A stretch of DNA of 30,589 bases from Patescibacteria group bacterium (GTDB taxonomy: Bacteria; Patescibacteriota; Patescibacteriia; UBA9934), in assembly GCA_018818445.1 (NCBI GenBank), contig JAHISC010000083.1:1-30589 (forward strand), written 5' to 3'. The translations under genes were made by a program, and so were the position numbers. The notes beneath the pieces were generated by a model, which saw only the letters and a program-made list of their open reading frames with translations, was not told where the DNA came from and did not search any database. Of this stretch, positions 7,172 through 20,369 are shown piece by piece. Positions within the stretch are counted from its first letter, which is position 1. The number at the start of each line of letters is the position of its first letter.

Positions 7172-7212
7172 CAACTTATCCACAGTAAACTTAGTTTACT
7201 GTGGATAAGTTG
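7172..7212. promoter_or_regulatory. 41-bp palindrome: two inverted perfect DnaA boxes flanking AAACTTAGTTT
   Basis: 20-bp perfect arms around a 1-nt centre; TTATCCACA 7176-7184, TGTGGATAA 7200-7208. Confidence 0.85.
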
Positions 7213-11655: not shown

Positions 11656-13482
11656 TTAATCCACTGTTACAGCTTTAGCAAGATTACGGGGTTTGTCTGG
11701 ATTATGACCACGCAGGACTGCTAGTTCATAAGCAATTAACTGCATAGGGACAACTGCTAACAGTGCAGTCAGAGGTCCATTGGTTGGTATTTCAATAACA
11801 GCATTAGCTATACCGTCAGCTAACTCTTTTTTATTAGTAATAACTATAGTGTAGGCACCGCGAGCGCGTACTTCTTCTGCAGCAGTGCGCATAAAGTGAG
11901 CATGATTGTCGTCTAAAATCGTCATTATAATCGGCGTACCTTCTTCAATTAGAGCAAATGGACCATGCTTCAAAGCACCACCTGGATAACCTTCAGCGTG
12001 TAAATATGTGATTTCTTTAATTTTGAGCGCACCTTCTCTGGCAATTGGTTCAGCATAACCTTTACCGAGCACAAAGCAATGCTCAGCATCAATCAGATTA
12101 CCAGCTATCTCCCTGCATTGCTCTTCAACATGCAAACTCATACCAACGCTGGTAGGCAGCCGATGTAATGATTCTATTAAGTTACGGCGTGCTTGATTTT
12201 CTAGATTCCTATTTTGAGCGAACCAATTTGCTACCAAGGAAAGCACAGTTACCTGAGTTGTGAATGCCTTGGTTGAGGCTACGGCGTGTTCTCGGCCAGC
12301 ATTAAGATAAACTCCGCAGCGAGTAGTTCGTGGAATCAGTGAACCAACAGCATTGATAATTGAAAATACTGGGATACCAGATTTTTGCGCGTTAGCGACT
12401 GCTCTATGAACATCTTTAGTTTCACCCGATTGTGATATTACTAGTAGGCCGCCATTTTCTTTTGGAAAAATGTCTCGGTTCATCTCAGCAGCGTCGATAA
12501 CTTGAACAGTTTCAAATGCTCTCAATGATCTCATTAATTGAGCGCCGTAGAGCGCAGCAAAGAATGAAGTTCCGCAAGCAGCAATAATTAGGTGTTTGAT
12601 GTTCAGAAGATTTTCTCTTTGCTCCTCCAAACCTCCGAGCTTAACATTAGCTTCATCAAAAATTCGTCCACCATAGTTTAAGGAACGCGAAATTGCTTCT
12701 GGTTGCTCTGATATTTCTTTAATTGTCCAGTGCGGATAAGGAGCTGGAGAGAGCTCGATTTTTTCATCCGGCGCCTGTTCTATACGAGCTAGGTCGAGTG
12801 AATGCCCGTCTGCCTTAATAATAGCGATTTCATCATTTTCGAGAGCAATAAATTCTTTGGTTTGCTGACTAAAAGCGGCCGGTTCACTGGCAATAAACAT
12901 ATTGCCTTTGCCAACTCCAATAACAATTGGACTTCCATTTCTGGCAGCAATAATTTGATCTGGTGCATCTTTAGAAATAATCGCTAACCCCCAAGTGCCT
13001 TCAAGCCGGTTAAGTGTCTTTTTGATAGCACTCATAAGATCTAGACCTTGGTCGAGAAAGACTCCGATGAGCTGAGCAATCACTTCTGTATCAGTTTCAG
13101 ATCTAAATTTAATGCCTGTAGCTTGTAATTCTTCACGTAGTTTTAGCGAATTTTCAATTACGCCATTGTGGACAAGAGCAATTCTATCTTTTTGATCATG
13201 ATGCGGGTGAGCATTGGCATCAGTTTTACCTCCATGTGTTGCCCAGCGAGTGTGAGCAATACCGGTAGGGTGAGCCTCGTGAGCGTCTTTTACTTCACGT
13301 AGCTGTTCGATCGCATCTGACGTTGAGCCAATACTAGCGAATTTCGTAGTCACTAATGCTCCGCCTGGAGATATCGAAGAGATTCCAGCCGAATCATAGC
13401 CACGATTTTCCAAAATCGTGAGACCTGTTAATAAATGAGGTGCGGCCGCTTCGCGACCGACGAATCCAACAATTCCACACAT
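11656..13482 (-). CDS. glmS: Glutamine--fructose-6-phosphate aminotransferase
   Basis: MCGIVG, NRGYDSAG, HTRWATHG, SQSGET, VASTKAF, LKHGP, NLAKAVTVD. Confidence 0.97.
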   Translation of the reverse strand: MCGIVGFVGREAAAPHLLTGLTILENRGYDSAGISSISPGGALVTTKFASIGSTSDAIEQLREVKDAHEAHPTGIAHTRWATHGGKTDANAHPHHDQKDRIALVHNGVIENSLKLREELQATGIKFRSETDTEVIAQLIGVFLDQGLDLMSAIKKTLNRLEGTWGLAIISKDAPDQIIAARNGSPIVIGVGKGNMFIASEPAAFSQQTKEFIALENDEIAIIKADGHSLDLARIEQAPDEKIELSPAPYPHWTIKEISEQPEAISRSLNYGGRIFDEANVKLGGLEEQRENLLNIKHLIIAACGTSFFAALYGAQLMRSLRAFETVQVIDAAEMNRDIFPKENGGLLVISQSGETKDVHRAVANAQKSGIPVFSIINAVGSLIPRTTRCGVYLNAGREHAVASTKAFTTQVTVLSLVANWFAQNRNLENQARRNLIESLHRLPTSVGMSLHVEEQCREIAGNLIDAEHCFVLGKGYAEPIAREGALKIKEITYLHAEGYPGGALKHGPFALIEEGTPIIMTILDDNHAHFMRTAAEEVRARGAYTIVITNKKELADGIANAVIEIPTNGPLTALLAVVPMQLIAYELAVLRGHNPDKPRNLAKAVTVD

Positions 13483-13552: not shown

Positions 13553-13561
13553 TGTGGATAA
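13553..13561 (-). promoter_or_regulatory. Perfect DnaA box in the glmS divergent intergenic region
   Basis: TGTGGATAA, 16 nt before ATG 13578. Confidence 0.55.
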
Positions 13562-18104: not shown

Positions 18105-19478
18105 ATGCAGATCCTGTTTCTCGGAGGTGTTGATGAAGTGACAGGATCTTGTTTTTTGATTAAAACATCAAGGGGGAAACTACTGATTGACTGTGGCATG
18201 TTTCAAGGTGAGAAGGAAGAAGCTAAGCATAATTTTGATCAGTTTAGTTTTGATCCAAAGTCACTTGATGCTGTTTTGGTTACTCATGCGCATGTAGATC
18301 ACACTGGACGTTTGCCATTGCTTGTTAAGGAAGGTTTTGGAGGGCTAGTTTATTTCACTCCACCCACGAAAACAGTTGCCATGTTGATTTTGGAAGATGC
18401 TCAACGAGTCATGGCAGAAAATGCGGAAAAGCACGGGGACAAAATTCTTTATTTACCAGAAGATATTAGTCGACTCAAGACTAGGTCGCGTGGAATTAAC
18501 TATCACACTGAATTTGAACCAATCCCTGGTATCAAAGCCATGTTTCATAATGCTGGGCATATTTTAGGTTCAGCTTATTTAAGTTTAGATATTCCGGCTG
18601 AGGAGATGACATCTGGCCAAGCAACACGATTTATTTTTAGCGGTGATATTGGAAATGACGCTGTGCCAATTTTGCCAGAGACTGAGCCAATTGATCACGC
18701 TGATTACGTTATAGTTGAATCAACTTATGGTAATCGTGAGCATGAACCAGTCGCTGTTCGGCAAGAAAAGTTACAAGAAATGATCAGCAAAGTCATTGGC
18801 CGAGGCGGCAGTCTTTTAATTCCGGCTTTTTCTGTTGAACGAACGCAAGAGCTTTTGTATGCTTTGGACGAATTATTTGATCAAAAGAAATTACCTAAAG
18901 TACCTATTTATCTCGACAGTCCATTAGCGATTCATACAACTGAGGCATACAGACAATATAAAGATTACCTTCAATTTGATAGGAAGATCTTATCCAGTCC
19001 TGATGCTGATTTTTTCTCTTTCCCAAATTTAAAGTTGACACTAACACAGCAAGAATCAAAAACGATCAATAATGACCACCGTCCGAAAATAATTATTGCC
19101 GGAAGCGGAATGATGACTGGAGGTAGGATCTTACATCATTTAAAACGCTATCTTAATGACGAAAAGAGTGGCTTGCTCATTATTGGTTATCAGGCAGAGG
19201 GTACGCTTGGTCGGCGGATTTTTGACGGTGCTTCCAAGGTAATGATTTATGGTGATGAAGTAGACGTGCGAGCCAGTGTTGAGGCAATCGGAGCATTCTC
19301 CGCTCATGGTGATAGAAATAAATTGGCACGTTGGTTAGTTCCGAAGAGTGGGGAAGTGAAGAAGATTTTTTTGGTCCATGGTGAAGAAGTCGTAAAAGTA
19401 GATTTCAAATCATTTTTACAAGACAAAGTTAGCTCAGAGGTTATTATCCCGAAATTCGCCGAGAATTTTGAGTTTTAG
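18105..19478 (+). CDS. Metallo-beta-lactamase/beta-CASP ribonuclease (YSH1/TTHA0252-like)
   Basis: VTGSC, IDCG, THAHVDHTG, AGHILGS, SGDIG, ESTYG, FSAHGD, LVHGE. Confidence 0.92.
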   Translation: MQILFLGGVDEVTGSCFLIKTSRGKLLIDCGMFQGEKEEAKHNFDQFSFDPKSLDAVLVTHAHVDHTGRLPLLVKEGFGGLVYFTPPTKTVAMLILEDAQRVMAENAEKHGDKILYLPEDISRLKTRSRGINYHTEFEPIPGIKAMFHNAGHILGSAYLSLDIPAEEMTSGQATRFIFSGDIGNDAVPILPETEPIDHADYVIVESTYGNREHEPVAVRQEKLQEMISKVIGRGGSLLIPAFSVERTQELLYALDELFDQKKLPKVPIYLDSPLAIHTTEAYRQYKDYLQFDRKILSSPDADFFSFPNLKLTLTQQESKTINNDHRPKIIIAGSGMMTGGRILHHLKRYLNDEKSGLLIIGYQAEGTLGRRIFDGASKVMIYGDEVDVRASVEAIGAFSAHGDRNKLARWLVPKSGEVKKIFLVHGEEVVKVDFKSFLQDKVSSEVIIPKFAENFEF

Positions 19479-19572
19479 TTAGAGAATTTTCTAATCTTAG
19501 CCAAGCGGTTGTTACATCTATGTAATTTTGGCTATATTCTTGTACCAAAATTAAATCAAAGCTTATAAATCA

Positions 19573-19682
19573 AAGCTTAGCTTTGGAAAGCTTAGCTTCC
19601 TGTGGATAAGGCATTGACAGAGTTTGCTGAAAACTTTTTTTCAAACTAAGTTTGCAGTAAACTAAGTTTGCTGTGGATAAGT
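19573..19682. promoter_or_regulatory. Two composite units: (11-bp palindrome)x2 followed by a DnaA box
   Basis: AAGCTTAGCTT 19573 and 19588, TGTGGATAA 19601; AAACTAAGTTT 19643 and 19659, TGTGGATAA 19672. Confidence 0.8.
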
Positions 19683-19683
19683 A

Positions 19684-20346
19684 TTAGAAACAAACATCAA
19701 GCGTTTGACAGGCTGCTGTGTAAAATTCAGAAGCGGAGGAGGAATTTGTATCAAAATTTATGGTTTCTGGGTTATGTGGAGACAATGTTGAGAGTGTAAT
19801 AGCCTTATTTTCGAGAACTTCGGCTATTTCATCAGCTTCTGATACGTAGACATTAATTGTTCCAGAACTGTTTGCGAGATCAATTCGATCTAACCAGCCG
19901 TAGTGAACAATAGATGTAAGTCCATTTATATTTGTTTGGATATCTCGCGTAAATACGCTTAAATCACCTTTAACAATTATTCTGCCTTGAATAAGCTGAA
20001 TTGTTTCCCGGCCTTCTCGACCATCGAGAATTTTTACTTCTGTGTTTTCGTCTAGAATAATCATTGAATCACCAAGATGAAGCAGCAAAGGAATTTCAAA
20101 GTTTGAAGCCATTTGTCCAGAATCACCATGAACAAAAAACGGCTGAATCAGTTCACTGTTTGGCATAGTGCTAACAATTTCGCCACGAGAAAATGTCCAA
20201 GGTTTGACATTCGTATATAACCAAGCTTCCTGATGCTTTTGGTATCCCTCGCCGCCAGCCCAGCGGTAGCCAACACGGTTGCCAACAAGCAACAGTGTGG
20301 AAAGAATAGCTACGAAGAAAATAAGTAGCGTGGTAAACTTAGGCAT
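19684..20346 (-). CDS. Membrane-anchored hypothetical protein with FecR-like beta domain
   Basis: N-terminal hydrophobic segment; LGDSMIILDENTEVKI...IQLIQGRI resembles FecR; start ATG 20346 or GTG 20358. Confidence 0.55.
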   Translation of the reverse strand: MPKFTTLLIFFVAILSTLLLVGNRVGYRWAGGEGYQKHQEAWLYTNVKPWTFSRGEIVSTMPNSELIQPFFVHGDSGQMASNFEIPLLLHLGDSMIILDENTEVKILDGREGRETIQLIQGRIIVKGDLSVFTRDIQTNINGLTSIVHYGWLDRIDLANSSGTINVYVSEADEIAEVLENKAITLSTLSPHNPETINFDTNSSSASEFYTAACQTLDVCF

Positions 20347-20369
20347 AGATAATTTCACTAATGCTTTTT

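Follow-up and report, generated by a model that had tools for sequence, protein, structure and literature searches.

A dispersed hairpin repeat carrying a DnaA box, and a RAYT-like transposase gene bracketed by its copies, in a Patescibacteria genome

The stretch of DNA analysed here, referred to throughout as the window, comprises 30,589 nucleotides and is contig C4 of a 693-kb (0.69-Mb) CPR/Patescibacteria assembly that originates from groundwater metagenomes (109 contigs, 41% G+C, 89% complete). Two of its genes converge on a gap of 205 bp, a length given in the initial annotation and in agreement with the ORF coordinates. The product of the upstream gene matches Pfam Beta-Casp (6e-41), Lactamase_B and RMMBL, and the ORF facing it had zero matches in a family search. 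Between them lie two parallel units, spaced 70 nt from start to start, each consisting of two 11-mers of the form AARCTWAGYTT and the 9-mer TGTGGATAA, which is the exact DnaA-box consensus. Both units, read again from the sequence, are present exactly as originally described. The features of the locus, together with a related palindrome elsewhere in the window, are listed below.

18105-19478, forward strand: gene for a metallo-beta-lactamase / beta-CASP RNA-processing nuclease, its 3' end towards the repeats
19553-19565, forward strand: partial duplicate of the left end of the repeat (AAATCAAAGCTTA, 13 nt), directly 5' of unit A and identical to 19567-19579
19567-19610, forward strand: REP-type copy A, G/C subfamily, with left flank AAATCA, first 11-mer (P1) at 19573-19583, loop TGGA, second 11-mer (P2) at 19588-19598, CC, and TGTGGATAA at 19601-19609
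19614-19619, forward strand: TTGACA hexamer, -35-like, 4 nt past the box of copy A
19635-19681, forward strand: REP-type copy B, A/T subfamily, with P1 at 19643-19653, loop GCAGT, P2 at 19659-19669, GC, and TGTGGATAA at 19672-19680
19684-20358, reverse strand: convergent neighbouring ORF of 224 aa, its stop 3 nt from the box of copy B
7172-7212, no strand assigned: single-11-mer version of the repeat, a perfect 41-bp palindrome

Copies A and B form hairpins of -7.5 kcal/mol (as DNA) and -7.2 kcal/mol, whose centres are mismatched (T-T in A, A-A in B), and the stability of either is only modestly greater than that of shuffled sequences (z -1.9 to -2.7). The palindrome at 7172-7212, in which inverted DnaA boxes (7176-7184 and 7200-7208) flank AAACTTAGTTT at 7187-7197, reaches -19.5 kcal/mol (z -11.8). 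The kinship between the two places had been noticed as a match of 19655-19682 to 7183-7210, and these segments are indeed identical at 26 of 28 positions. Across the window, TGTGGATAAG with at most one mismatch was counted 10 times, against 1.95 expected, and none of 100 shuffles reached 10. The TTGACA behind copy A is a -35-like passenger: no usable -10 follows it, and a promoter scan at this hexamer called no promoter. A search of sequencing runs found the locus in no RNA run.

A genome-wide scan placed the two units in a family of about 17 hairpin copies, which are spread over 9 contigs, intergenic without exception, and found in either orientation beside unrelated genes. The paired 11-mer pattern was met 14 times per strand, versus 0 for a reversed control, a much clearer excess over chance than in the window alone. 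When all copies are aligned in one orientation, AAATC is common to their left ends and NC-TGTGGATAA to their right ends, and because their similarity stops at these two points, we set the size of the unit at about 47 bp. The layout is AAATC, 11-mer, a loop of 3-5 nt, second 11-mer, 2 nt and TGTGGATAA, and two 11-mers, each self-complementary and with CTWAG conserved at its centre, make up the hairpin core. The copies form three subfamilies (AAGCT/AGCTT, AAACT/AGTTT and AAGTT/AACTT), among which paired changes preserve the stem. Sixteen copies were aligned: at pair 10-32, AU and GC occur in 7 copies each, and at pair 16-26 there are 8 copies with CG and 7 with UA. Covariation scored 0.182 (0.114 in shuffles), a value attained by 0 of 500 shuffles. 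The A/G and T/C differences between units A and B, which had been taken for compensatory changes, are thus upheld as such by stem covariation across these 16 copies, the central W of the stem being paired in only 7 of them.

The spacing bias between the 11-mer and the DnaA box, first seen in the window, is also present in the whole genome. The interval from 11-mer to TGTGGATAA is exactly 2 nt in 9 cases, and the only other spacings of up to 40 nt are those of 17-18 nt that belong to the first 11-mers of the same modules. Of the 31 perfect DnaA boxes in the genome, 10 have an 11-mer-like sequence no more than 16 nt before them, and judging from their contexts a few more fall in degenerate copies. 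In the source sample and in two further studies, metagenome contigs end within 19571-19680, and their loose ends match other copies of the repeat or, in some cases, flanks that are absent from the assembly; one such flank that had been mapped to contig C64 was rejected as a spurious fuzzy match. The reads contain copies in addition to those assembled. The module is a dispersed hairpin repeat of the REP type, and it is not confined to 19573-19682.

Individual copies elsewhere in the genome have features of their own. At C49:852-973 (L003) lies a box-less copy with a symmetric A-run and T-run (AAAATC...GATTTT), and about 40 nt beyond it a tandem array of four G/C-type 11-mers; the hairpin can therefore exist and multiply without a DnaA box. 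The segment C60:15600-18100 (L001:3600-6100) is rich in repeats: the hairpin repeat is there five times, along with members of a second REP family, a GC-rich terminator that occurs twice (CGCCTGGC...GCCAGGCG) and G+C-rich ORFs unlike the surroundings, and the segment may represent a foreign or rearranged island. At C86:5350-5420 (L002:1851-1920), TTGACA-N16-TGcTATAGT comes after a copy of the G/C subfamily whose box has decayed, and a structured leader of about 215 nt separates this promoter-like sequence from nusA. The succession box-N4-TTGACA is common to this copy and to copy A, and the promoter of nusA may owe its -35 to the C86 repeat. Only three unrelated tRNAs came out of Rfam and tRNA scans covering the window and nine repeat-bearing loci, and an RNA gene or a riboswitch was rejected as a reading of the repeat.

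Hairpins behind genes could also be terminators or mRNA-stabilising structures, kept alike by selection or gene conversion without any transposase. Such roles are known for the REPs of E. coli, which terminate and stabilise transcripts (PMC6006769), and the positions are suggestive: all copies with two known neighbours follow at least one gene 3' end, the palindrome at 7172-7212 sits where a congener has a canonical terminator, and GATTTT comes after the hairpin on one strand. However, a terminator scan of 19300-19900, which called stems with at least three G-C pairs and a T run after them, found no site, and relative to the upstream gene the copies face both ways, about 4 having their T-rich side downstream and 4 lying against it. 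In the form of a canonical intrinsic terminator this explanation was rejected, given the mixed orientations and the lack of a G+C-rich stem with a T run. In its wider form it leaves unexplained why the 9-mer is conserved, why unrelated loci have identical sequence, and why a transposase gene is bracketed as described below, and we judge it improbable.

The congener just mentioned (G001, about 70-75% DNA identity) has the same convergent genes about 3 nt apart and, at the place of the 7172-7212 palindrome, an ordinary GC-rich terminator upstream of an ftsI-like gene. Its genome as a whole holds a single hairpin copy, without a box. Conservation of the locus in relatives, which the initial annotation had put forward as a check, was accordingly not borne out in the orthologous spacers of G001, and because the module is missing there, a locus of the datA or DARS kind is unsupported. 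The difference between the two genomes could reflect a deletion in G001 rather than an insertion here.

Three genes of the genome encode Y1/HUH proteins (Pfam Y1_Tnp), and only one of these, P0001, is of the type that lies among the repeats.

C85:5209-5829: P0001, RAYT-like Y1/HUH transposase gene, 206 aa from ATG
C85:5081-5118 and C85:5812-5850: hairpin copies flanking P0001, in direct and not inverted orientation

The stop codon of P0001 falls in the loop of the downstream hairpin copy. The protein matches Pfam Y1_Tnp (9e-9) and NCBIfam REP_Tyr_transpos (1.5e-12; 47.6 bits, below the 80-bit cut-off), and its HUH motif (N60 H61 x H63) and Y121 are invariant across 26 homologues. A sequence search of the PDB with P0001 gave no match. 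The AlphaFold model of the protein (pLDDT 91.5) has its best PDB fold match in 4ER8, a REP hairpin complex of the E. coli RAYT (E 3e-7, TM 0.66), and the matches that come next are IS608 TnpA and ISDra2 TnpA. P0001 and its two bracketing copies have the layout of a REPtron, in which a RAYT gene is bracketed by its repeats (PMC6006769). The G/C subfamily, which includes unit A, has no transposase gene adjacent in this 89%-complete assembly. Between the -10 of P0001 and its start lies CCCcgATTGT...ACAATtGGG followed by T6. A shared family of neighbouring proteins was considered as the binder of the repeat and discarded, because an all-against-all BLAST of 53 flanking ORFs found no paralogues.

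The two other Y1 transposase-like genes, at C56:3683-4543 (L020) and C74:6213-7067 (L019), encode 286 and 284 aa and each lie between inverted copies of their own GGGGTCAGGTC... repeat, one of which recurs on C60. Their products, P0002 and P0003, which show only about 35% identity, bear a C-terminal tail of the HTH type, and their flanks, which are GGGGTCAG-type inverted repeats without boxes, differ from those of P0001. P0002 and P0003 match the TIRYT or subclass 2.1 pattern (Quentin et al. 2018; PMC6006769), as a system separate from P0001. The idea that a DnaA_C-like tail on these proteins reads the box was dropped, since pairwise BLAST against the DnaA of the genome gave no match; Pfam found only a weak HTH_23 in the tails.

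Of the 162 genomes of the order, 87 have homologues of P0001, frequently in the form of several divergent paralogues. At 28 of 29 homologue loci, a genome-specific repeat of 12 nt or more (median 21) is shared by the flanks on either side of the gene, compared to 1.7% of mismatched-control flank pairs, and many of these repeats carry the CTWAG core inside differing, co-varying arms. In the 200 nt before the start codon, 17 of 70 homologue loci have a perfect DnaA box and 29 of 70 a box with no more than one mismatch, counts that overstate the number of independent events because the loci are related. The perfect-box loci span at least five genera. Box density upstream of the homologues amounts to 1.36 per kb versus 0.09 per kb elsewhere in the same loci, and 15 of the 17 perfect-box loci have TTATCCACA pointing to the gene. 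In most loci with a recognisable -35-like hexamer, the box stands 0-11 nt before TTGACx, between the upstream hairpin and the promoter. Among L022-L096, most homologues also have, from the -10 to the start codon, a conserved CTCCCC...GGGGAG leader hairpin with a T run, which looks like an attenuator or a blocker of read-through, as in IS200.

In the genome under study, the box stands 2 nt from the hairpin, in the opposite orientation. The perfect form of box plus TTGACN occurs once, in unit A, and was on that ground rejected as a general promoter form here, though it is common in the relatives. In each of the 41 relatives checked, perfect boxes outnumbered a reversed control several-fold (5-10 times), and the DnaA of this genome has the canonical domain IV signature GGRDHTT. 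The sequences suggest that DnaA boxes are a common promoter-proximal element in the order. We regard the 9-mer as most likely a true DnaA site belonging to a lineage-wide promoter form, a view that gains support because the 9-mer recurs beside unrelated hairpins and promoters of homologous transposases in other genera.

Alternatively, the repeat would be of the REP type but its 9-mer a recognition or guide sequence of the transposase, or the site of some other protein, so that its likeness to a DnaA box would be coincidental. Canonical REPs have a conserved flanking tetranucleotide, GTAG or GTGG, which is read by the RAYT (PMC6006769); GTGG is contained in TGTGGATAA, and at one locus of a relative (L026) box-like sequences make up the stem of the hairpin itself. 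A sequence read by the transposase does not account, however, for the behaviour of the 9-mer across genera, where its orientation and its distance from the hairpin vary (2 to ~13 nt) and the proximity to the -35 is kept. The hairpins differ among genomes while the 9-mer stays constant, with conservation confined within its edges, and in relatives it precedes the -35 of many hairpin-free promoters, as do about one third of the boxes listed for G034. A non-DnaA role of the 9-mer is therefore rather unlikely in our view, although it keeps some weight.

Perfect boxes also occur outside the repeat family and in other arrangements. In the present genome they include those at 2197-2205 and 13553-13561 of the window and an inverted pair 19 nt apart at C77:12151-12195; among the non-repeat boxes, one lies about 50 nt upstream of a class II ribonucleotide reductase gene and one just upstream of the gene at 11656-13482 on the reverse strand. 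In G034, G016 and G022, many perfect boxes precede a TTGAC -35 by 1-15 nt and have no hairpin in their vicinity. G022 has two families of box-bearing modules, one made of CAAGGTTWAACCTTG, 1 nt and TGTGGATAA and often in tandem, the other of inverted box pairs about 19 nt apart around AAGTCGGAC. Its genome (99% complete) has no P0001-type gene and only an IS200-like Y1, so that such modules can persist, or perhaps arise, without the enzyme.

Besides a small dispersed repeat element, the initial annotation had proposed an unrecognised DNA-binding partner of DnaA or a locus of DnaA titration or reactivation. The module would then be a dedicated DnaA-control element, be it a datA-like site of titration, a DARS-like site of reactivation, or an operator at which a dimeric protein on the 11-mers works together with DnaA on the box beside them. 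The exact consensus of the 9-mer, the retained signature of DnaA and the excess of perfect boxes across the 41 related genomes are in keeping with this, and the roughly one third of the 31 perfect boxes that lie in modules could matter for titration. But each unit has one box, and the locus has only two, in direct orientation and 71 bp apart, which is not a cluster of the datA or DARS type. The module is missing from the orthologous spacers of the congener, its copies lie in both orientations beside unrelated genes, two of them bracket a transposase gene, and the covariation in the stem fits base pairing and not base-specific reading by a protein. The dnaA gene is on a different contig, with imperfect boxes only upstream and no module, which also led us to reject an origin of replication. 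We consider dedicated DnaA control very unlikely. Titration or reactivation is not supported as the reason for the module, given a single box per unit and a position that is not conserved, and neither is an operator for an unrecognised partner of DnaA, because the 2-nt spacing is constant through the copying of one unit and not through selection site by site. The small dispersed repeat element is the proposal that survives: the module is multi-copy and intergenic, brackets a RAYT-like gene and is absent from the orthologous spacers of the congener.

Taken together, we think it probable that units A and B are REP-type copies spread by the RAYT-like P0001, with the DnaA box hitch-hiking. A dimer of P0001 would bind the hairpin in single-stranded DNA, for example on the lagging-strand template, and would cut and rejoin it, so that new copies are seeded in intergenic DNA; the binding and cutting steps are drawn from known Y1/HUH enzymes (PMC6006769; 4ER8). 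The 9-mer would be unselected at this locus and would derive from the box just before the -35 of transposase genes. Because it stands only 2 nt from the foot of the hairpin, it would be copied along with it, sometimes together with the -35 TTGACA. Locally, the by-products would be a convergent spacer that widened from some 3 nt to 205 nt, a pair of hairpins with perhaps a weak stabilising or terminating effect on transcripts, and two sites to which DnaA could bind with high affinity. The support for spread by P0001 consists of sequence and predicted structure, and no cutting, joining or movement was observed.

Whether DnaA goes beyond the part of a passenger and is a working host partner of the RAYT/REP system in CPR bacteria is a more tentative matter, and we see this as possible though somewhat doubtful. 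If it were true, box-bound DnaA would set the transcription of the transposase by replication state and might help the A+T-rich hairpin to open, and wherever the box is fused to the hairpin, spread of the repeat would scatter high-affinity DnaA sites and half-promoters. With about one third of the perfect boxes of the genome coming from one family, the repeats could then feed back on the availability of DnaA and could affect neighbouring genes as well, nusA at the C86 copy being an example. Since many perfect intergenic DnaA boxes in these genomes ride on repeats, such boxes should not be read as evidence of an origin or of a DnaA regulon.

In a full-text literature search, no publication was met that connects REP/RAYT systems to DnaA boxes or describes such systems in CPR bacteria. 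REP/RAYT systems are known mainly from Proteobacteria, and their role for the host is debated. The present case would place a REP/RAYT-like system in ultra-small, host-dependent CPR bacteria, whose genomes are otherwise poor in repeats and regulators, and its physical link to a replication-initiator site offers a testable tie between replication state and a single-strand-DNA transposase.

Compared to the REPtrons of E. coli (yafM/4ER8) and Pseudomonas (REPIN-RAYT), the system has in common a single-copy Y1/HUH gene between copies of a dispersed intergenic hairpin and a repeat that is species-specific and co-varies with the enzyme. The predicted fold of P0001 matches 4ER8 best, and its NCBIfam score lies under the RAYT cut-off. 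It differs in its A+T-rich stems of two self-palindromic 11-mers with a CTWAG centre, and in the absence of both a G+C-rich stem base and a GT[AG]G tetranucleotide 5' of the hairpin foot. The 5' flank here is AAATC, or CCACAG on the other strand, and GTGG stands 3' of the hairpin, inside the box; because the GT[AG]G tetranucleotide is absent, we class the repeats as atypical REPs. Further differences are the number of copies, about 17 here and hundreds in Proteobacteria, the direct orientation of the flanking copies, the consensus DnaA box fused 2 nt from the hairpin, and the host, an ultra-small CPR/Patescibacteria genome.

Among the TnpA-Y1 proteins, subclass 2.6 and class 3 have weak, non-GTAG flanking structures with copies elsewhere in the genome (PMC6006769), and the flanks of P0001 are likewise weak, non-GTAG and recurrent. 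The comparison extends to flank features alone; PMC6006769 reports no DnaA box, and DnaA comes up there solely in connection with subclass 2.1, whose proteins have a DnaA_C-like tail. With the IS200/IS605 family (IS608, ISDra2 and the PATE derivatives) the system shares a Y1/HUH enzyme with sub-terminal hairpins that it would recognise on single-stranded DNA, hairpins of the same orientation at both ends, as at C85, and a leader hairpin before the start codon. In contrast to that family, the genome has one P0001-type gene and not several near-identical units of gene plus ends, and solo hairpins far outnumber the gene. Relatives hold divergent paralogues, each with its own repeat, and the fold match of P0001 to IS608 and ISDra2 TnpA is weaker than that to the RAYT.

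A precedent for a box on a repeat may be seen in Tn5/IS50, whose outside end, according to PMC3347997, which cites Yin and Reznikoff 1987, carries a DnaA site, DnaA acting as a host factor for transposition. As a mobile-element end with a DnaA site it resembles the present repeat, but Tn5 has a DDE transposase and double-stranded ends without a hairpin, and a role of DnaA here would be by analogy. The datA and DARS1/2 loci of E. coli are clusters of several DnaA boxes with IHF/Fis sites, a set geometry and conserved positions. They resemble the present repeats as non-origin intergenic DNA with consensus DnaA boxes, and differ from them in that here each mobile unit carries one box and positions are not conserved. 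We take the RAYT/REP hairpin system with its DnaA box to be a new form of an already known kind of repeat system, the reading as a replication-control locus being unsupported.
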